64,000 bases of DNA from Patescibacteria group bacterium (GCA_038078555.1 JBBTYQ010000003.1:397-64396), one strand, 5' to 3'; shown: positions 2,330 through 53,748, counted from the stretch's first letter. Translations and numbers: made by a program. The notes: a model not told the origin generated them from the letters alone.

Positions 2330-3334
2330 TTATTTAAGCACTATAATTTCCCTGCTTCTTCCCTCTAATATTACCACAGCAAAATCAATTGCTAAAAGTA
2401 TCTCAAAAATCACGTAAGCTAATAAGGAGATAACCCAGCGAATCGGTAAAGCAAAACCCTCTATAATTAAGAAGATAAGCATAGCCACTCCAAAAAGAAC
2501 AAGAGTTCTGGCGTTTTTGGGCAATTGACTGAATTTTTGGCTAAGCAAATCATAAACTGCATCGGAAATTTTAAGCTCCGAATTAAAGTTTTCACCGAAA
2601 TAAACGGCTAATCTTGCTTCAAATTCGCCGGCCGATTGATTAATAAGCCGATTTTTTTCTGATTCCGATAAAAGTTTAGCCTGAGGCAAATTATTAAGCT
2701 GGTCTTTGGCAGAATTAAAAGCAAATTCCTTAATTGAGTAGGACGGGTTAAAAGCCGGATAAAAATTTTTAACAATTGCTGAACTGGAGAAAAAAATATC
2801 TTCAAAATACGCTTTTGGAAAAACAAAGCCGCTACCAACCGTACTTACGTAAGAAAAACTGAAAAATATCGCTAAAGCAGCAATAGCCTTGGGCAAAACA
2901 ACTTTACTGACACGCCAAAAATTAATTTTAAGCATATTATCCATTTCTTTTTTTGCGCTCCAATAAGCCAGAAATAAAAGCAAAGTCGCAACTACTGCGC
3001 TTCCCGAAACAAATAAATTAATCTCTCCGTAAAATCCAGCTATTAAAATCAAACCCTCAATCGATATAATTAAAATTGACCGCCAAAAATCTTTTATAAA
3101 AATGCTTTGCAGAAGAACACTTATTGAAAACAAAAAAGCAGCTCCCGCGGAAATCGAAACAAACAATAAATTTCCGCGGGAAAAAAATAAATTCAAAAAA
3201 TAACTGAAAATCAGGGAAAAAACAATTCCAAAAATCGCTAAAACTATTATTTTGGAAAGCGACTGGTCAACTTCAGCGCCATCAGTGTGATGGCCGAGTA
3301 ATTCTCTATCATTTATCAGTCCCAGGGGTTCCAT
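2330..3334 (-). CDS. Polytopic membrane protein, unknown function, embedded in the dnaK operon
   Basis: 334 aa with many hydrophobic helices and no family I recognise. It overlaps the dnaK 3' end by 26 nt, so the true start may be an alternative codon further in. Confidence 0.6.
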
Positions 3335-5135
3335 CTTCCTTATTATACATTGATTGACCGATTTTTTGAAGCTCGGAGGAAAGTTCGTTTAATTTTAATT
3401 TAATGGCTTCTAAATCATTTCCGTCCTTGATGGATTTTAAAGCTTCTATTTTTTGATTTACGGAATCTTTTATTTCAGCGCTTATTTTTTCGCCGGCTTC
3501 GCGCAAAGATTTTTCCGCAAGATAAATTGATTGTTCCGCTTGATTTTTTATTTCCACAAGCTCTTTCTTCCTGCGATCTTCTTCCGCGTGAGCCAAAGCT
3601 TCATTTTTTAATTTTTCAACTTCTTCTTTGGAAATTTGAGTGGAGGCTTCAATATGCACCGATTGAATCTTATTTGTAGCTTTGTCTTTAGCGGAGACAT
3701 TTAAGATGCCGTTTGCGTCTATGTCAAACGTCACCTCAACCTGAGGCAAGCCGCGGGGCGACGGCGGAATGCCATCTAAAATAAACCGCCCCAAAGTTTT
3801 GTTATCTAAAGCCATGGGCCGTTCTCCTTGAAGAATATGAATTTCCACTGATGTCTGATTATCGCCGGCAGTAGAAAAAACTTGGGATTTGGCCGTAGGA
3901 ATAGTAGTGTTTTTTTCAATTAACGGAGTAAAAACTCCGCCTAATGTTTCTATGCCCAAAGAAAGCGGCGTAACATCCAAAAGCAAAATATCTTTTATTT
4001 CGCCCTGGAATATTCCCGCTTGCACTGCCGCGCCTATTGCCACAACTTCATCCGGATTAATTCCTTTATGAGGTTCTTTGCCGAAAAATTTTTTAACCGC
4101 TTCTTGGATAGCCGGCATTCTAGTTTGCCCTCCGACTAAAATAAATTCATTAATGTCGGAAACTTTAAGATGAGCCTCGTCAATGGTCTTTTTTATAAGC
4201 TCAATTGATTTAGCAATATAGTCAGTTACAAGCTCTTCAAGTTTTGCCCTCGTCATTTTCATTAAAAAGTGCTTTGGTCCGGCAGCATCAGAGCTGATAT
4301 AGGGAATGTTTATTTCTGTTTCAAACGCGGTAGAAAGTTCGTGTTTTGCCCGCTCAGCCGCTTCTTTAAGCCTTTGAATAGCCAATGGGTCTTTGGAAAT
4401 ATCTATGCCTTCCTGTTTTTTATATTCGGCAACAAGATATTCTATAATTCTTTTATCAAAATCATCTCCGCCTAAATGAGTATCGCCGCCCGTACCTTTG
4501 ACCTCAACCACATCATCGCCGATTTCTAAAATAGAAATATCAAAAGTTCCTCCGCCAAAATCATAAACAACGATTTTTTCGTTTTTCTGCTTGTTTAAGC
4601 CGTAAGCCAAAGCCGCGGCAGTAGGCTCATTGATAATCCGGCGCACTTTTAAGCCGGCAATTTCTCCGGCGTTTTTAGTTGCCTGCCTCTGAGAGTCATC
4701 AAAATAAGCCGGAACGGTAATAACCGCTTCTTCAATTTTCTCGCCCAATTTTGCCTCAGCATCTGTTTTAAGTTTTGCTAAGACCATCGCGGAAATTTCT
4801 TCGGGTTTATACCACCTATCGCCCATTTTCACATCCACTCCGCCCTGATCAGATTCTTTTATATCAAACGGAAACCAAACTTTGTCATGTTGAACTTCTG
4901 GGTCGGAAAATTTCCTACCGATTAATCTTTTTACGGAAAAAATCGTATTTTTCGGATTAACAACCGATTGGCGTTTAGCTAAAACTCCAGCCAACCGTTC
5001 ACCTGACTTGCTTAAAGCAACAACCGAAGGCGTGGTTCTGGCTCCTTCATGATTTTCCAAAATTTTCGGCTCGCCTGCTTCAATTACAGCCATTGCCGAA
5101 TTAGTTGTTCCTAAATCTATACCTAAAATTTTCAT
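3309..5135 (-). CDS. dnaK: Chaperone DnaK (Hsp70)
   Basis: 608 aa with Hsp70 signatures [17 protein letters not shown] and [10 protein letters not shown]. Confidence 0.98.
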
Positions 5136-16666: not shown

Positions 16667-17161
16667 TCAACTCGCTACTCGTTTATATATAAACATTGGC
16701 ATGTGGTTGAGTATCCACTCTCTTAAACACCAGTCTTTTTTGGAGCGAACACGCGCCTGAGTGGAATCAGGGCAGTACCATTCGTCTTCTGAATATTCAT
16801 CAATTCTCCCGCAAATTCCGACCTTGGGACTTATGCCCGCCTCACGACACGCGTATTTGAGATTTCGCAAACAGCGTTTGAGATGAGGCTTTGCGGCAAC
16901 TATCCAAAGCTCTCTTAAATCTTGCTCTTTTGCCCACTTAGCCGCTCCTCTGGCTATTCGAAGCGTTGGCGGAGGATTGCCTGGTTCCTCGTCAGTATAT
17001 TTCACTTTAATTCCCGGCTCTTTTATGCGAATATCGAGCTGAGTATAAATCGGGATGCTGAACTTTCGCGCTTTTTGCAAAGCAATTCTTGCAATGCGCA
17101 AGTTAGACAAGATGGTATCCGGAGTCCCAAAAGCAAATGCCACAACAGCCGCTTTTTTCAT
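16667..17161 (-). CDS. Hypothetical protein, compositionally atypical (about 50% GC)
   Basis: 164 aa. It has a strong SD (GGAGG, 8-nt spacer) and its own terminator. Sampled lines are 50-57% GC against about 30-40% in the surroundings. I recognise no family. Confidence 0.6.
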   Translation of the reverse strand: MKKAAVVAFAFGTPDTILSNLRIARIALQKARKFSIPIYTQLDIRIKEPGIKVKYTDEEPGNPPPTLRIARGAAKWAKEQDLRELWIVAAKPHLKRCLRNLKYACREAGISPKVGICGRIDEYSEDEWYCPDSTQARVRSKKDWCLREWILNHMPMFIYKRVAS

Positions 17162-17283
17162 CCCAATCGCCTCCTTCTATATTTTTTAGTTATGTAAATT
17201 TTCTTCCCTTATGATAACATAATAAAATTAATATGTCAATAATACGATAACATACAAAAAGTTTTTAAAGTTTAGCTATCACT

Positions 17284-17399
17284 GGCGCTCCCGCAAGGAA
17301 TCGAATCCGTCAGTAGGCGGAGTGAGCCTATCAACTGCTTAAAAAATTTTATCCGCCCACTGGCGGACCGGCTGGCGGATTTGCCATTAAGCTATGGGC
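17284..17399 (-). pseudogene. Degenerate tRNA-Lys-derived unit with two GC-rich insertions (chimeric 3' end ...GCGGGAGCGCCA)
   Basis: The minus strand keeps the blocks CCCATAGCTTAATGGCAAAT, TTTTAAGCAGTTGAT and TTCGATTCCTTG, which are shared with the adjacent tRNA-Lys. The acceptor strands do not pair, and the anticodon and T stems are broken. Confidence 0.55.
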
Positions 17400-17421
17400 T
17401 ATGGGTTGAAAAGATTTACTG

Positions 17422-17492
17422 TGCCCCCACAAGGAATCGAACCTTGATCAGCTGCTTAAAAGGCAGCTGCTTTGCCACTAAGCTATGGGGGC
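17422..17492 (-). tRNA. tRNA-Lys(UUU)
   Basis: A 71-nt cloverleaf: GCCCCCA/TGGGGGC acceptor, anticodon arm GCTGC-CTTTTAA-GCAGC, T arm CAAGG-TTCGATT-CCTTG. No CCA is encoded. Confidence 0.92.
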
Positions 17493-17511
17493 ACAGTAAA
17501 TCTTTTCAGAT

Positions 17512-17769
17512 TTATTTATTTGTTAATTTTCTAATAAATTCTCTTCCTTTAAAACTCTTTAACTCTTTTTCCCTAATCATCGCTTCTTTTCTAGTATCAA
17601 AACTTTCTTTATAAATCAATCTCCAAAAACCACTATTCTTACTTGTAAACGATTTTGCTTTATTTTTCAATAATCCGTTGTGCCTTTTTAGTCTTTCTTC
17701 CAAATTTGATGTATGACCGATATAGATTTTATCTCTTTCCTTGTTGTAAATGGCATAAATAAAAAACAT
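17512..17769 (-). CDS. GIY-YIG nuclease family protein (small, URI-domain only)
   Basis: MFFIYAIYNKERDKIYIGHTSNLEERLKRHN... is a GIY-YIG core. The ORF track extends it to 17829, but that extension (MANPPAGGLLSR...) is a read-through of a tRNA fragment. Confidence 0.85.
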   Translation of the reverse strand: MFFIYAIYNKERDKIYIGHTSNLEERLKRHNGLLKNKAKSFTSKNSGFWRLIYKESFDTRKEAMIREKELKSFKGREFIRKLTNK

Positions 17770-17794
17770 TCTTTTAATTTCTTTTCTGCTTATT

Positions 17795-17843
17795 CTGCTT
17801 AAAAGTCCGCCGGCCGGCGGATTTGCCACTAAGCTATGGGGGC
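17795..17843 (-). pseudogene. 5' fragment of tRNA-Lys with a palindromic GC insertion
   Basis: The first 22 nt and the block CTTTTAAGCAG are identical to tRNA-Lys. The anticodon-stem 5' strand is replaced by the palindrome CCGCCGGCCGGCGG, and there is no 3' half. Confidence 0.7.
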
Positions 17844-17852
17844 AAATTAACT

Positions 17853-18101
17853 CTATGTGTTTTCTAATAATTTTTTAATTTTAACGCCTCCTTTCTGTTT
17901 TTTTAACCATCTTTCAAACTCTAATGCAAATTTTTTACTTTCAAACTCGCGCCAATATATTAATTTAAAAGGTCTTCTACTTTTCGTTGATTTACTCTTG
18001 CCTTCGTTATGCCATTTTAACCTTTTTTCGATATTATAAGTTGAGCCAATATAATTTTTATTATCTTTTTCGCTTTTTATAATATACACAAAATGCTTCA
18101 T
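17853..18101 (-). CDS. GIY-YIG nuclease family protein
   Basis: 82 aa with MKHFVYIIKSEKDNKNYIGSTYNIEKRLKWHN, a GIY-YIG core. Confidence 0.85.
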   Translation of the reverse strand: MKHFVYIIKSEKDNKNYIGSTYNIEKRLKWHNEGKSKSTKSRRPFKLIYWREFESKKFALEFERWLKKQKGGVKIKKLLENT

Positions 18102-18209
18102 TGACCAATCTTTTTTGTGAAATTAACACCGAAAAATAATGCGTTTATTTTTATAAAATATAAACCCCGCAAAGCGGGGCAACCTTTCAGCTAAATTTTT
18201 CAAAATAAT

Positions 18210-18521
18210 TTAGCTGATTTTTACAATTTCCGCTTCGGTATAATGCTGGCGATGGCCTTTTTTCTTCCGATAACGGGTTTTGGAGTGATACCTAAAAACG
18301 ATTTTCTTTTTATCTCTCGCTTGTTTTAAAATTTTTGCCTCAGCTTTGGCGCCGTTTACATAAGGAGCGCCGATTTTAACGTTTTCCTTGTCAGCTATCA
18401 ATAAAACCTTGTCAAAAATAACACTGGCGCCTTCTTCGCCGTCTATTTTCTCTATTTTAATTTTTTGGCCGGGAGAAACCTTATATTGTTTACCCCCTGT
18501 TTCAATAATAATAAATTCCAT
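18210..18521 (-). CDS. rplU: Ribosomal protein L21
   Basis: 103 aa starting MEFIIIETGGKQYKVSPGQKIKIEKI, a typical L21 N-terminus. Confidence 0.95.
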   Translation of the reverse strand: MEFIIIETGGKQYKVSPGQKIKIEKIDGEEGASVIFDKVLLIADKENVKIGAPYVNGAKAEAKILKQARDKKKIVFRYHSKTRYRKKKGHRQHYTEAEIVKIS

Positions 18522-18531
18522 GTCTTTAAAA

Positions 18532-18876
18532 TTAATTAACGCTAATAATCACATAGATTGCCATTAAAATCAAGATGGCAATGCCTAAGCTGCAAAAAAC
18601 CAAAATATAGGAAAGAAAACGCTCTCTGTCATAAATAAAATCGGCAAGGAAAAAATTGACAAGTATTATCGCAAACGAAGAAACAGTAATCCCAAGAGCT
18701 TCAAATTTTCCGCCAAAAAAATCAACTCCGACATACTCATTAAAATGAATTACCAGCGGCAATGAAGCGTTTTTTAATTTAAAATAAACCATTGCTGACG
18801 ATAATAATACCAGAACAAGAGTTGTGCCGGAAACCAGCCTAAGATGTTTGTCTTTAATTATATTTGAAAAAATCAT
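18532..18876 (-). CDS. Small membrane protein, unknown function
   Basis: It has three hydrophobic helices. The ORF-track start at 18897 lies inside tRNA-Glu, so the internal ATG at 18876 (MIFSNII...) is more likely. Confidence 0.5.
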   Translation of the reverse strand: MIFSNIIKDKHLRLVSGTTLVLVLLSSAMVYFKLKNASLPLVIHFNEYVGVDFFGGKFEALGITVSSFAIILVNFFLADFIYDRERFLSYILVFCSLGIAILILMAIYVIISVN

Positions 18877-18889
18877 TTTTTTAAATTTG

Positions 18890-18962
18890 TAGCGCATACG
18901 GGAATCGAACCCGTGTTACGTGCTTGAGAAGCACGTGTCCTAGACCACTAGACGAATGCGCC
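18890..18962 (-). tRNA. tRNA-Glu(CUC)
   Basis: 73 nt with a Glu-type D region (GTCTAGTGGTCTAGGAC), anticodon arm CGTGC-TTCTCAA-GCACG, and T arm CGGGTTCGATTCCCG. Confidence 0.88.
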
Positions 18963-19013
18963 ATATATTTTAGCTTGATAGCTAATTAGATGGATAGCTC
19001 GTTAGTTAAAAAG

Positions 19014-20288
19014 CTAACCAGCTATTTTTATTTCTTCCACTATTTTATCCAAACCAACTGCATGCGATGCTTTAATTAAAATGATATCGTCTTTTTTTAA
19101 TAATTTCTTGATTGAATTTAAAGCTTCTTCCGCTGTGTCGAAAAACAAAACTTTATTTTTTTCTAATCCGCTAATTATAGCGGAATCAGCCATAAATTTT
19201 CCCCTAGGACCAACCGTAATCAAAATATCTGCGGATTGGGCCGCCAGTTTGCCGATTGATTCGTGAGCCTCAATAGAATACTTGCCCAATTCCAGCATAT
19301 CGCCCAGTATCGCAATTTTTCTTTCTCCTTCAAGCTCTTTTAAGGTTTCGAGCGCTGATTCCATTGAAAGAGGAGAGGCATTATAGCTATCGTCAATAAT
19401 ATAACTGTTTTTAATGCCGTAAATCAAATTCATCCTGGCTTTGGCCGGTTTATAATTAGCTGATAGAGCTTCGGCCGCTTCAACTAAATTAATCCCATAA
19501 ATAACGCCGACAAGCGCGCCAATTGCCGCGGCATAAGCATGCGCTTTGCCGAAAACGCCTCTTAAATTAACCGGCACAAAACTGCTTTCTTTTTCAAATT
19601 TAAAGGAAATACCGATCGGCTTGTTATTTTCGGAGCGGTTTTCAAAACTGGTAATTTTTAAATTTGAATCGCTGCTAAAACCGAAGGTCAGAATTTGAGC
19701 TCTTGTTTTTTCTTTCATCGCTAAAACTAAATTATCATCGTTATTTAAAACAGCCCAATTTAACGAAGACAAATCATCAATAAGTTTTGCTTTTTCTCTG
19801 GCTATGGCTTCTACGTCACTATAAAATTCAATATGCACCGGCACTTCGCCCACTGCAGTTACCACGGCAATTTTCGGCTGAGCAATTTCCAAAAGATATT
19901 TAATATCGCCCGGCTTAGATGCCCCGTATTCTAAAATCAAAATATCGGGATAATTAAAACGAGAAATAAAAGAAAACAGCAATTTTAACGCTGAAATAAC
20001 AATAATTTTTAGCCAGAAAAATATCAGCGGGCGCTCCACTTTCTGCCAAGAACCTAAAATAGTAAGCGGCACGCCAAGCTCATTATTAAAATTTTCGCTT
20101 GCTTTTCTTACATTTTTTTTGCCGTTTGCATTTGAATAACCGCTTAAAACAGCAAAAATCGCCTCTTTGGCCGATGTTTTACCAACACTTCCGGTAATAG
20201 CAATAATATCGGGCTCAAAACGCCAAATAGTCAAACGAGCAAGCTGTTTGAGAACGTATTTTAGAATGTTTAACGAGATTTGATGCAT
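19014..20288 (-). CDS. murF: UDP-MurNAc-tripeptide--D-Ala-D-Ala ligase (MurF-type Mur ligase)
   Basis: 424 aa with the P-loop ITGSVGKTS and the MurF-like NNELGVPLT. It lies in the dcw cluster after ftsI. Confidence 0.85.
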   Translation of the reverse strand: MHQISLNILKYVLKQLARLTIWRFEPDIIAITGSVGKTSAKEAIFAVLSGYSNANGKKNVRKASENFNNELGVPLTILGSWQKVERPLIFFWLKIIVISALKLLFSFISRFNYPDILILEYGASKPGDIKYLLEIAQPKIAVVTAVGEVPVHIEFYSDVEAIAREKAKLIDDLSSLNWAVLNNDDNLVLAMKEKTRAQILTFGFSSDSNLKITSFENRSENNKPIGISFKFEKESSFVPVNLRGVFGKAHAYAAAIGALVGVIYGINLVEAAEALSANYKPAKARMNLIYGIKNSYIIDDSYNASPLSMESALETLKELEGERKIAILGDMLELGKYSIEAHESIGKLAAQSADILITVGPRGKFMADSAIISGLEKNKVLFFDTAEEALNSIKKLLKKDDIILIKASHAVGLDKIVEEIKIAG

Positions 20289-34525: not shown

Positions 34526-34600
34526 TGGTGCGCCTTGTAGGGATCGAACCTACGGCCTTTCGAATGTGAATCGAACGCTCTACCACTGAGCTAAAGGCGC
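34526..34600 (-). tRNA. tRNA-Val(CAC), CCA encoded
   Basis: 75 nt with acceptor GCGCCTT/AAGGCGC, anticodon arm TTCGA-TTCACAT-TCGAA, and T arm GTAGG-TTCGATC-CCTAC. Confidence 0.92.
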
Positions 34601-35705: not shown

Positions 35706-35928
35706 ATTTCAGCAATTAATTTTCGTTGTTAGCGATTACTTTAAATAAAAATGCGCCTATTTGCAGACGCACTTAAGAGAAACTAAATTTACCAGTTCCT
35801 CAACAGGATTTATCTCCGCTTTGCGGAGCACCTGTCTCCCGACGTTACGTCGGGAGATCCCTCGACGTAACGTCGGGAGATGGTCTGCGGAATTTTTATA
35901 ATATTATCAGACTGATTTAAAAAGTCAA
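35706..35928 (-). promoter_or_regulatory. Structured rplJ leader: promoter, twin GC hairpins, terminator-like hairpin
   Basis: TTGACT is at 35928-35923. Two near-identical hairpins lie at 35880-35858 and 35857-35835. A 7-bp stem plus T-run lies at 35771-35743. The 5' segment CCGCAGAC (35890-35883) can pair with the terminator strand GTCTGC. Confidence 0.5.
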
Positions 35929-42363: not shown

Positions 42364-42394
42364 TGGTGGCGTTCTGCCACTAAACTACTCTGGC
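42364..42394 (-). pseudogene. tRNA-Thr(GGU)-like 5' fragment ending in CCACCA
   Basis: GCCAGAGTAGTTTAGTGGCAGAACGCCACCA contains an acceptor 5' strand and a D arm that closely match tRNA-Thr(GGU). It then jumps directly to a CCA-like end. Confidence 0.55.
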
Positions 42395-42405: not shown

Positions 42406-42586
42406 AGCCGGAGAGAGGAGTCGAACCTCCAACCGAAGTTTACCCCGTTAGATATGCCGATAAGCCGGCGGAGGGATTCGAACCCACGACCTACGGTTTA
42501 CAAAACCGTTGCTCTGCCCCTGAGCTACGCCGGCATATCTAACGGGGCTTCGCAAAAGCATTGCTCTACCATTGAGCTACCCCGGC
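42406..42586 (-). other. Interrupted tRNA-like gene (anticodon-loop UGC) whose halves flank tRNA-Thr(UGU)
   Basis: The 5' part (42586-42548) and the T arm plus acceptor 3' strand (42430-42406) have acceptor strands that pair 7/7. They are separated by 117 nt containing a 13-bp inverted repeat and a complete tRNA. Confidence 0.55.
42463..42534 (-). tRNA. tRNA-Thr(UGU)
   Basis: 72 nt with acceptor GCCGGCG/CGCCGGC and anticodon arm ACGGT-TTTGTAA-ACCGT. The T arm GTGGG-TTCGAAT-CCCTC has one U-U mismatch. Confidence 0.88.
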
Positions 42587-43931: not shown

Positions 43932-44303
43932 TTATATTAAATATTTTTGATATTTTTCATCTTCTAATGATATTACATTCCTTGCGCTTATTTCTTGCCA
44001 TTTTATTAAATAACAACGATTATCAGCGGTATAAATAAATAAATAATCAAAATCGTCATCTCTATATTTTTTAGCATAATTAAAACTTTGATTACCTCCA
44101 GTAATTCTAAGATTGGCGCAATGTGCTCCTCGACTACTTTTACCTGCAAATTTTATTTGTACTTTATTTAATTTTTTACCATCATCAAATACTAAATCAT
44201 ATCGCTTTCTATCTCCTAAGGGAAGTAAAACTTCATAGCCAAACGCTGTTAATTTAGCAATACATTGAGAAACGGCTAATGATCCTTTGTCTTTACTATT
44301 CAT
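43932..44303 (-). CDS. PD-(D/E)XK endonuclease-like protein (intron-associated-type small nuclease family)
   Basis: 123 aa. It has KGSLAVSQCIAKLTAFGYEVLLPLGDRKRYDLVFDDGKKLNKVQIK, the GD...D-x-V...Q-x-K pattern of this family. Confidence 0.7.
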   Translation of the reverse strand: MNSKDKGSLAVSQCIAKLTAFGYEVLLPLGDRKRYDLVFDDGKKLNKVQIKFAGKSSRGAHCANLRITGGNQSFNYAKKYRDDDFDYLFIYTADNRCYLIKWQEISARNVISLEDEKYQKYLI

Positions 44304-44378
44304 AACAACAGTCTACTACCCTGTTTAATTTTGTCAATTCTTATTTTAAAGTTGCCGTTCAGCCACCGCCGGATTAAA

Positions 44379-44729
44379 TTAATTTTCTGGAGTTTTGTCA
44401 GTTTCACTTTGTTCCTCGATATTATCAAATAAAGCAGGTTTCTCGCCATTGCCGTTGGTTTTTTTTACTTTTTTAAGATGGTGAGTTACCAAATTATCCC
44501 ACTTCATCAATATAAGCTTGATTTTTCTTAAAGCTTTTTCCAGCTGAGTGCTTAAAGTAACATCCAACCTTTCAAGCGGCAAAAAGGAAATCAATTTATC
44601 GATTTTGGCATAAGGCGTCCTTTCAAAGTCTTCTCTGATATCGCTAACTCTGGGCACTGCCCGGGCAATTAAATAAATCATCGCTCCGAGGCTAAACATT
44701 ATAATGGTTTGAAGAATAAAGTTATACAT
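44379..44729 (-). CDS. Small single-pass membrane protein, unknown function
   Basis: 116 aa with one N-terminal TM helix and a charged C-terminal tail. It is preceded by pre-ATG element E5. Confidence 0.55.
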   Translation of the reverse strand: MYNFILQTIIMFSLGAMIYLIARAVPRVSDIREDFERTPYAKIDKLISFLPLERLDVTLSTQLEKALRKIKLILMKWDNLVTHHLKKVKKTNGNGEKPALFDNIEEQSETDKTPEN

Positions 44730-53049: not shown

Positions 53050-53748
53050 GTGGATTTATCAGTCTTAGAAAAAAAAATAAGCGTCCAGTTTAAAAATATC
53101 AACCTTCTTAAGGAGGCTCTTACTCACCGATCTTATCTTAATGAAAATTCTGCTTGGGGCTTGTCTAATAATGAACGGCTGGAATTTTTAGGCGATGCTA
53201 TTTTAGAACTCATAGTTACCGAAGAGTTATTTAACCTTTACCCGAAATCAACAGAAGGAGAACTCACAAGCATCAGAGCCGCATTGGTTAATTATCAAAT
53301 GCTCTCGGAAGCGGCAAAAAATATCGACCTTAATGAATTTATTTTGCTTTCCCGCGGAGAATCAAAAGACATGGGCAAAGCCCGAGATGTTATTTTAGCA
53401 AACGCTTTTGAAGCGCTCTTAGGCGCTATTTATTTGGACGGCGGATACAAATCAGCCGAAGCTTTTATAAAAAACCACTTAATAAAATACCTTGCTAAAA
53501 TAATCGAAGAAAAACTTTACAAAGACCCGAAAAGTTTGCTTCAGGAAATAGCCCAGGAAAAATTCAAGGTAACTCCGACTTATTTGGTTATTTCAGAAAG
53601 CGGTCTGGATCACGCTAAAATTTTCAATATTGGTGTTTATTTTAGCGATAAGCTTATTGCCGAAGGCGAAGGTTCATCAAAGCAAGAAGCCGAAGTAGAA
53701 GCGGCAAGAAAAGCGCTGGAAAATAAAGATTTGCTTAAAAAATCTTAA
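53050..53748 (+). CDS. rnc: Ribonuclease III
   Basis: 232 aa with a GTG start. It has the signature NERLEFLGDAILE and a C-terminal dsRBD. Confidence 0.95.
   Translation: MDLSVLEKKISVQFKNINLLKEALTHRSYLNENSAWGLSNNERLEFLGDAILELIVTEELFNLYPKSTEGELTSIRAALVNYQMLSEAAKNIDLNEFILLSRGESKDMGKARDVILANAFEALLGAIYLDGGYKSAEAFIKNHLIKYLAKIIEEKLYKDPKSLLQEIAQEKFKVTPTYLVISESGLDHAKIFNIGVYFSDKLIAEGEGSSKQEAEVEAARKALENKDLLKKS

Follow-up and report, generated by a model that had tools for sequence, protein, structure and literature searches.

We analysed a 64-kb stretch of DNA (hereafter the window; G+C content 37.6%) from a groundwater bacterium of the Patescibacteria, Paceibacteria/Wolfebacteria-like, in which the transfer RNA (tRNA) genes for tRNA-Lys(UUU) and tRNA-Thr(UGU) are each flanked by a perfect inverted repeat. 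Each repeat-flanked tRNA is an intact gene that lies between the decayed remains of an earlier tRNA gene of its own type, and the disruptor of the tRNA-Lys locus belongs to an element, widespread in Patescibacteria, that combines a GIY-YIG nuclease gene with a palindrome of 16 nucleotides (nt), here called PAL. With a probability of about one half, we read the repeats as DNA-level by-products, or scars, that bracket replacement tRNA genes in loci broken repeatedly by selfish elements. The host is bacterial, with bL21, bL33 and MurF encoded in the sequence, and all seven tRNAs of the window lie on the minus strand (ARAGORN and Rfam).

The initial annotation had described the tRNA-Lys precursor as a continuous helix of about 22 base pairs (bp), made up of a 15-bp leader/trailer duplex and the 7-bp acceptor stem. 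The repeat is real, and the helix that it can form is one base pair longer: since the discriminator base A73 pairs with U-1, the flanking helix has 16 bp and the continuous helix 23 bp. In the repeat search, the two 23-nt arms (17407-17429 and 17486-17508, spaced 56 nt apart) were 100% complementary, comprising the 7-bp acceptor stem and 16 bp of leader and trailer, and RNAfold returned one unbroken 23-bp stem closing the cloverleaf (-58.7 kcal/mol, z = -9.4). When all perfect inverted repeats with spacers of 20-200 nt were ranked across the 64 kb, the repeats at tRNA-Lys and tRNA-Thr were the two longest. The tRNA-Lys region is base-identical in three independent assemblies, which rules out an assembly artefact. 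The helix was also rejected as an intrinsic terminator because no U-tract follows the trailer arm. The locus is arranged as follows, from 5' to 3' on the minus strand:

17853-18101, minus strand: GIY-YIG nuclease gene #2, 82 amino acids (aa) (Pfam GIY-YIG, E=5.6e-19), directly 5' of the former resident tRNA-Lys
17822-17843, minus strand: fragment (i), GCCCCCATAGCTTAGTGGCAAA, the 22-nt start of a tRNA-Lys, matching nt 1-22 of the intact gene at 100% identity
17806-17821, no strand assigned: PAL, a perfect 16-nt palindrome, TCCGCCGGCCGGCGGA, in place of nt 23-30 of the tRNA copy
17795-17805, minus strand: CTTTTAAGCAG (tRNA-Lys nt 31-41), what is left of the anticodon loop and of the 3' side of the anticodon stem; the tRNA copy ends here
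17512-17769, minus strand: GIY-YIG nuclease gene #1, 85 aa, catalytic domain only (Pfam GIY-YIG, E=5.2e-18)
17493-17508, minus strand (read from 17508 to 17493): leader arm, TGAAAAGATTTACTGT, starting 3 nt past the stop codon of GIY-YIG gene #1
17422-17492, minus strand: intact tRNA-Lys(UUU), 71 nt, CCA not encoded (ARAGORN; Rfam 75.4 bits)
17407-17422, minus strand: trailer arm, ACAGTAAATCTTTTCA, which starts with the discriminator A73 and is perfectly reverse-complementary to the leader arm
17286-17399, minus strand: fragment (iii), a degenerate, palindrome-riddled tRNA-Lys pseudogene, 7 nt past the trailer arm

In a Harrisonbacteria genome (L014; related loci carry L numbers throughout), an 87-aa open reading frame (ORF) homologous to GIY-YIG gene #2 adjoins an intact tRNA-Lys, which identifies the 22-nt fragment (i) as a remnant of the resident tRNA-Lys. 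In fragment (iii), the anticodon stem (17352-17379) and the T stem (17306-17321) have each had their 5' strand replaced by palindromes of the PAL family, and a palindrome followed by a T-run at 17351-17368 scores as an intrinsic terminator. Within the window PAL is confined to the tRNA-Lys locus (17306-17321, 17352-17379 and 17806-17821), where it could act as a nuclease binding site, as an attenuator or as the end of the element. A promoter-like site precedes fragment (i), and a terminator-like palindrome lies 3' of the Lys cassette. When orthologues of the locus were sought via a neighbouring 164-aa gene, synteny was not kept and the relatives were distant (~62-66% identity); L132-L134 were uninformative. 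The distant relative L006 has a tRNA-Lys without a repeat; some 55 nt upstream of that normal gene, at 3617-3650 of L006, lies a 5' tRNA-like fragment, GCGCCGCCTGTAGCCCAGTCGGGAGAGG, and stray tRNA pieces therefore seem common in the phylum. As to CCA, the only one of the window's seven tRNAs with an encoded 3' CCA is tRNA-Val(CAC) at 34526-34600.

The tRNA-Thr(UGU) at 42463-42534 had likewise been described as lying within a 13-bp duplex, and its arms are indeed perfect over 13 nt (42535-42547 and 42443-42455). They are not continuous with the acceptor stem, from which a 7-nt bulge on the 3' side, TATCGGC, parts them; an alternative register of 17 nt (42443-42459 and 42531-42547) includes the first 4 nt of the tRNA. 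For the other five tRNAs of the window, leader/trailer complementarity is 6 nt or less, in agreement with the earlier statement that they have no such flanks. Again from 5' to 3' on the minus strand, the locus contains:

42553-42586, minus strand: pseudogene X, 5' part, comprising nt 1-35 of what was the resident tRNA-Thr(UGU) (X5' plus X3' compared with relatives L131 and L127)
42535-42552, minus strand: CGAAG and the leader arm, CCCCGTTAGATAT (42535-42547)
42463-42534, minus strand: inner, intact tRNA-Thr(UGU) (ARAGORN; Rfam 70.3 bits)
42443-42462, minus strand: the 7-nt spacer TATCGGC and the trailer arm, ATATCTAACGGGG (42443-42455)
42406-42442, minus strand: 3' part of the resident tRNA-Thr(UGU), from nt 36, pseudogene with a mutated 3' anticodon-stem strand
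42365-42394, minus strand: a further 5' tRNA-Thr fragment, GCCAGAGTAGTTTAGTGGCAGAAC plus GCCACC, resembling the outer and inner tRNAs of L126

Joined end to end, the outer halves (42586 to 42553 and 42442 to 42406) are 64/72 identical to the intact resident tRNA-Thr(UGU) of L131 and L127. The resident gene has thus been split at anticodon position 35|36 by a 110-nt insert, which consists of CGAAG, the leader arm, the inner tRNA-Thr(UGU), TATCGGC and the trailer arm. The inner tRNA is 57/72 identical to the gene that it interrupts, and the differences in its stems are paired changes. In five relatives (L127-L131; tyrosyl-tRNA synthetase, TyrRS, 76-77% identical) the order is TyrRS, an intact resident tRNA-Thr(UGU) with no flanking repeat, tRNA-Thr(GGU), L33 and tRNA-Trp. 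At this locus the closest relative, L126 (TyrRS 82%), has a cassette of its own that differs in both inner tRNA and arms (TCCCCCACCCATT and AATGGGTGGGGGA); there the arm tips form both junctions, and the 3' junction again falls directly before nt 36. Nesting at 35|36 was also found for a tRNA-Ala (L052) and a tRNA-Cys (L041).

The outer tRNA genes are decaying through loss of stem strands, deletions and extra hairpin insertions, which disqualifies them as exons of a functional tRNA. In the outer Thr gene the 3' anticodon-stem strand has been lost, and the outer Lys copies have palindromes where stem strands should be. A functional tRNA, intron-containing or split and composed of outer and inner parts, was rejected in view of these degenerate outer halves and of the lack of a ribozyme or a bulge-helix-bulge motif. 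No group I ribozyme core was detected: an Rfam scan of the window at gathering thresholds returned only the seven tRNAs, and a permissive scan of 16800-19200 gave no intron match.

Several further observations concern the tRNA-Thr region. The CGAAG at 42548-42552 is complementary to CTTCG at 42434-42438 in the 3' half of the split gene, which extends the duplex to 18 bp with a TAAA bulge; the relatives have GCAAAG or GCGAAG at that position. Through this pairing the Thr inverted repeat runs past the insertion junction, which fits no simple model. Fragments of tRNA-Thr 5' ends directly precede the intact tRNA-Thr(GGU) in the window (42365-42394) as well as in Wolfebacteria relatives (L127, ~3729-3775). 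The fragment in the window ends in GCCACC, which matches the start of the inner tRNA of L126, and this suggests that it may be the residue of an earlier, mostly deleted cassette. At the intergenic site 35835-35879 we noted a tandem pair of GC-rich hairpins (TCTCCCGACG-TTA-CGTCGGGAGA together with a variant). Similar CCGACG...CGTCGG hairpins were seen within the L041 pseudo-tRNA and at both the tips of the tRNA-Ala cassette of L052, and they may represent a family akin to repetitive extragenic palindromic (REP) sequences.

We characterized the element at the tRNA-Lys locus through a metagenome scan with GIY-YIG gene #1, which yielded 80 loci (L046-L125), 77 of them with downstream sequence. Homologues 60-78% identical occur in many Patescibacteria lineages, and the residues Y5, Y16, G18, R26 and E67 are invariant in 34 homologues; among solved structures, the closest are those of the I-TevI catalytic domain, UPF0213 proteins and SLX1. 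A tRNA lies 0-120 nt downstream of the nuclease gene in 67/77 loci, namely tRNA-Lys(UUU) in 27, tRNA-Lys(CUU) in 16, tRNA-Asn(GUU) in 23 and tRNA-His in 1. In at least 55 of these 67 tRNA-linked loci, PAL (consensus TCCGCCAGCTGGCGGA) lies 11-64 nt upstream of the GIY-YIG start codon, embedded in an incomplete duplicate of the tRNA concerned. At Lys loci it stands in place of nt 23/24-30/31 of the duplicated tRNA 5' part and the copy ends 8-19 nt later, and at Asn loci it lies in the D loop, in place of tRNA-Asn nt 14-16. The element runs from a partial tRNA copy with PAL through an 85-aa GIY-YIG gene to a tRNA-Lys or tRNA-Asn that is intact; behind it there is often a pseudo-tRNA with a palindrome, which was present in about one third of the GIY-YIG loci. 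Variants of the family have tandem arrays of fragments, or have the tRNA upstream of the ORF instead.

Like homing endonucleases, these elements have an intact GIY-YIG catalytic domain and sit beside a conserved target gene in neighbourhoods whose flanking genes vary among loci; the 82-90 aa proteins consist of the catalytic domain only, with no sequence-specific DNA-binding domain. The pattern of PAL plus anticodon loop was not found in IMG/VR viral contigs, and carriage of the element by phages was rejected on this ground. Among bacteria of the Candidate Phyla Radiation (CPR), GIY-YIG genes have been reported only within rRNA insertion sequences (PMC11270868). In our literature search, neither GIY-YIG genes embedded in tRNAs nor tRNA genes nested in one another were found described for CPR, and the PAL string did not turn up in the searchable literature. 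The combination of GIY-YIG gene, PAL and tRNA-Lys or tRNA-Asn is apparently an undescribed element family widespread in Patescibacteria.

Tandem units of tRNA 5' part, PAL and anticodon loop are found in L077 (2171-2420, five 52-nt units) and in L064 (597-690, three 27-nt units), in both cases upstream of an intact tRNA or nuclease gene. A second palindrome family, CCTGCCTGCCGGCAGGCAGG, occupies the T loops of pseudo-tRNAs 3' of the intact tRNA in L135 (~2975-3000), L053 and L057. Elsewhere in the window, tRNA-Tyr is preceded by a 123-aa PD-(D/E)XK gene (43932-44303, minus strand; Pfam PDDEXK_5, E=2e-21) whose end lies 23 nt upstream of it, and a tRNA-like 5' fragment, CCGGCGGTGGCTGAACGGCAAC (~44359-44380), lies ~55 nt upstream of the start of that gene. 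This layout of fragment, nuclease and intact tRNA is that of the tRNA-Lys locus with another nuclease family, PDDEXK_5, to which the tRNA-fMet intron endonuclease I-Ssp6803I belongs. In relatives L126-L130, an ORF of 116-130 aa directly precedes tRNA-Tyr.

To place the repeats in context, leader/trailer complementarity was scored over 168 non-redundant tRNAs from the window and ~135 related loci, with 834 mismatched leader/trailer pairings as the control. Scores of 20 or more were reached by 11/168 tRNAs, seven of which top all 834 controls, and all 11 of these repeats start 0-8 nt from the tRNA ends. A score of 24 was reached by 0/834 mismatched pairings, compared with 32 for tRNA-Lys and 26 for tRNA-Thr of the window, which together with their rank as the longest repeats in 64 kb excludes a chance origin. 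Duplex lengths range from 23 bp (Lys) through 13 bp, or 18 bp with a bulge (Thr), to 10 bp in several others. The arm sequences are unrelated among loci, and their cores are perfect Watson-Crick duplexes with no G-U pairs. Within the GIY-YIG family repeats are few: they were seen in L052, L064 and L102 of the 80 scanned loci, in the window, in L030 and in L135, and most tRNA-Lys/Asn genes beside the same nuclease family had none in the related loci compared. A k-mer test for association between repeats and flanking fragments was insensitive, as the ORF exceeds the scanned flank and the fragments have diverged.

Comparison of individual loci indicates how the arms arise and change. In L052 and L102 the stop codon of the GIY-YIG gene falls within the leader arm, and in L064 the arm lies in C-terminal codons of the ORF. 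This overlap in three loci implies that the leader is constrained and the trailer a derived copy, and because a 16/16 perfect complement cannot arise stepwise from unrelated sequence, we infer a templated inverted duplication in which the trailer arm copies the tRNA's own 5' leader. In L135, whose nuclease is 78% identical to that of the window, a perfect 15-bp repeat is present although 77 nt separate the leader arm from the tRNA; 7/15 in-register positions of the leader differ from the window, and each change is mirrored in the trailer, with no G-U pair and no single-sided change. L136 (74%) has an in-register but decayed repeat in which 12/17 positions still pair, and L053 has a decayed repeat of ~35 nt. 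Such decayed repeats mix G-U pairs with non-pairs.

A copy of this kind could form if a 3' DNA end that has just completed the 3' strand of the acceptor stem folded back onto the 5' strand and went on to copy the leader. The switch might accompany replication or the repair of breaks made by a nuclease, or might happen on a linear fragment that has come in from outside, and break-prone loci that suffer repeated nuclease cuts would be the expected place for such events. Three features of the repeats are the expected signature of such a fold-back: the copy starts at the acceptor-stem end, it takes in whatever leader is present, including a neighbour's stop codon, and in the ORF-less cassettes it stops at the cassette boundary. 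The arms may afterwards be kept perfect by quasi-palindrome correction, which would account for the mirrored changes between the window and L135 without G-U intermediates, or they may decay. The resulting precursor helix would then be a tolerated burden and not a designed signal, with RNase III the obvious candidate to open it.

If the arms were instead true terminal inverted repeats of a non-autonomous mobile tRNA cassette, their hairpin or cruciform would serve as substrate for a structure-specific nuclease or recombinase, for example the abundant stand-alone GIY-YIG proteins, and this enzyme would insert the cassette into the cognate resident tRNA gene. We regard this as rather unlikely, though as a serious rival. 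The Thr cassette is a discrete insert for which relatives show the empty site, four independent insertions at 35|36 affect three tRNA types, the inner tRNA carries paired stem changes relative to the interrupted gene, and the GIY-YIG profile matches the nuclease domain of the structure-specific SLX1, all of which would suit a mobile cassette, as would the C-rich tips of several cassettes and the coincidence of insert ends with arm tips (both in L126, at least one in W2, L052-Ala and L041). However, the arms are unrelated between cassettes, and neither direct repeats indicative of target-site duplication nor a recurring arm sequence was found in the window and the fetched loci, where no cassette has a second copy either. 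The overlap of the leader arm with stop or C-terminal codons fits a copy made in situ better than a pre-formed unit, and the L135 repeat is perfect despite the 77 nt that part its leader arm from the tRNA. Of the suggestion in the initial annotation that the repeats are terminal repeats of small tRNA-carrying cassettes, the cassettes come close to what the sequence shows, given a Thr insert that splits a gene intact in relatives and a Lys copy intact inside the disrupting element; the arms, however, do not behave like repeats recognised by a transposase, given unrelated arm sequences, no target-site duplication or further copies, and a leader that overlaps the ORF end in three loci. The other suggestion was that of RNase III processing stems, and the gene in question is present as annotated:

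53050-53748, plus strand: RNase III gene rnc (Pfam Ribonuclease_3 and dsrm domains)

On that account the duplexes would be selected at the RNA level, RNase III cutting the leader/trailer helix as in rRNA operons and freeing a pre-tRNA with short tails from a long transcript in which the nuclease mRNA and pieces of pseudo-tRNA are present as well. At 23 bp the helix offers sufficient length for RNase III, the tRNA lies within a longer transcription unit between the promoter-like site and the terminator-like palindrome, and the arms of the window and L135 co-vary. Another cut would moreover be needed, as a leader paired to the 3' end inhibits bacterial RNase P (PMC9433436), with which the earlier remark on a fully paired leader as a poor RNase P substrate agrees. 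We infer that the duplexes (Lys 23 bp, Thr 13-18 bp) block RNase P and 3' processing until opened, and with rnc encoded in the window, incidental cleavage by RNase III is possible and a reasonable expectation. As the reason for the repeats, however, selected processing stems appear quite improbable and this earlier suggestion is not supported. Stems are absent from the orthologous tRNA-Thr(UGU) genes of L127-L131 and from most tRNAs of the same family that face the same processing problem, so that the scan of relatives for repeats and covariation proposed earlier yielded co-varying arms in the window and L135 but tRNAs without repeats in most orthologues and homologues. Compared with rRNA-type stems, a duplex of about two helical turns is present at tRNA-Lys, but conservation with G-U intermediates was not seen: the cores have no G-U pairs, and the decayed examples mix them with non-pairs. 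In addition, several arms have just 10 bp, and the Thr arms are parted from the acceptor stem by their 7-nt bulge and have a 17-nt register that competes with it. Partition-function folding of the whole unit with native or scrambled trailer arm gave acceptor-stem probabilities of 0.976 and 0.974, respectively, for Lys, hence no gain, and of 0.001 and 0.20 for Thr, hence a cost in silico. The same results bear on the idea that the arms are a folding clamp that keeps the intact tRNA from mispairing with the pseudo-tRNA fragments on either side, in which the same acceptor and anticodon sequences recur. Every repeat-flanked tRNA does sit between fragments that duplicate its own sequence, but the lack of a gain for Lys and the loss for Thr, together with the common occurrence of the same flanking fragments without a repeat (L058, L059, L066 and L071), make such a clamp very improbable.

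The reading of the repeats as fold-back scars has its own difficulties. The fold-back event itself is known only from its presumed products, and the 85-aa GIY-YIG proteins, lacking a DNA-binding domain, are nucleases of putative activity and target. That the arms are perfect in both the window and L135, although the proteins diverge by 22%, could just as well be due to selection for pairing. Repeats were found in ~4-6% of the sampled tRNAs, always on the functional copy, a recurrence that may point to some advantage or to something that the insertion mechanism requires. In ORF-less cassettes, the outer arm ends are the insertion junctions and several arm tips are C-rich (CCCCG, TCCCCC, TCCCG), as in true terminal repeats. 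The folding comparison, being thermodynamic, leaves out co-transcriptional folding and base modifications. We tentatively consider a wider possibility, a previously undescribed two-component turnover of tRNA genes in Patescibacteria by GIY-YIG/PAL elements and hairpin-ended tRNA cassettes. Stand-alone GIY-YIG genes with PAL would lodge in tRNA-Lys/Asn genes and regenerate an intact copy, and small cassettes with a complete foreign tRNA gene would enter the cognate resident gene precisely at 35|36 and replace it in situ; the inverted repeats might then be a hallmark or mechanistic requirement of cassette formation or insertion.

Parts of this picture resemble known systems. Phage T4 carries in its tRNA cluster SegB, a free-standing GIY-YIG homing endonuclease that favours co-conversion and amplification of tRNA genes (PMC2330249; PMC13096335, the latter on segmental amplification of tRNA loci). 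As with SegB, whose breaks drive inheritance bias, duplication and rearrangement of the adjacent tRNA region, a GIY-YIG gene lies among tRNA genes; unlike SegB, the 82-85 aa proteins studied here are catalytic domains without a DNA-binding domain whose cleavage is only predicted, they reside on a bacterial chromosome and not in a phage, the PAL pattern being absent from IMG/VR, and they are accompanied by a 16-nt palindrome inside a duplicated tRNA 5' part and by the nested pseudo-tRNAs left behind. Quasi-palindrome template-switch mutagenesis, reportedly proposed in Ripley's model and studied in E. coli by the Lovett laboratory, offers a parallel in that a short inverted repeat (here the 7-bp acceptor stem) primes an intramolecular strand switch which yields a longer perfect palindrome with arms kept identical. 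Unlike those cases, the putative events described here involve tracts of 10-16 nt beside an essential gene, in natural genomes with mobile nuclease genes.

Integrative elements that target tRNA genes leave tRNA gene fragments (PMC9897764). In common with them, an intact tRNA is regenerated and a fragment of the displaced original stays beside the insert, whereas no integrase is present here, the duplicated part is 5' and not 3', the inserts measure 0.1-0.4 kb, and the ORF-less class nests a whole tRNA in the anticodon of the old gene. Leader/trailer stems of rRNA precursors are sites of RNase III in bacteria and bulge-helix-bulge stems in archaea. They share with our repeats the pairing of the flanks of a mature stable RNA into a long helix, but the repeats described here are sporadic, are not conserved in orthologues, are perfectly Watson-Crick paired and have no bulge-helix-bulge. 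Group I introns with homing endonucleases are found in bacterial tRNA anticodon loops (PMC3984707; bioRxiv 10.1101/2020.01.27.920355). The insertion into an anticodon loop and the tie to genes of homing-endonuclease type are alike, but here there is no ribozyme, function is restored by a second complete tRNA without splicing, and the outer exons are decaying. Our loci differ from all of these systems in that the nucleases are catalytic domains standing alone, a conserved palindrome is set into a duplicated tRNA 5' part, whole tRNA genes are nested in the anticodon of the gene that they replace, and no ribozyme, integrase or transposase is present. Rearrangement driven by homing endonucleases and fold-back palindromes are thus already known, and it is the surrounding element family that appears undescribed.

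Taken together, an odd RNA feature is here explained as a signature of genome dynamics, and essential tRNA genes in reduced CPR genomes emerge as hotspots of invasion, breakage and replacement. The GIY-YIG/TCCGCCAGCTGGCGGA/tRNA-Lys/Asn element provides a model for how a nuclease without a DNA-binding domain finds its target, and the repeats are candidate cases, in natural genomes, of palindromes formed by fold-back beside an essential gene. For annotators, the many pseudo-tRNA pieces and nested genes at CPR tRNA loci call for caution. Finally, the repeats raise the question of how a bacterial tRNA matures when its leader is fully paired to its trailer and its precursor is a poor substrate for RNase P.

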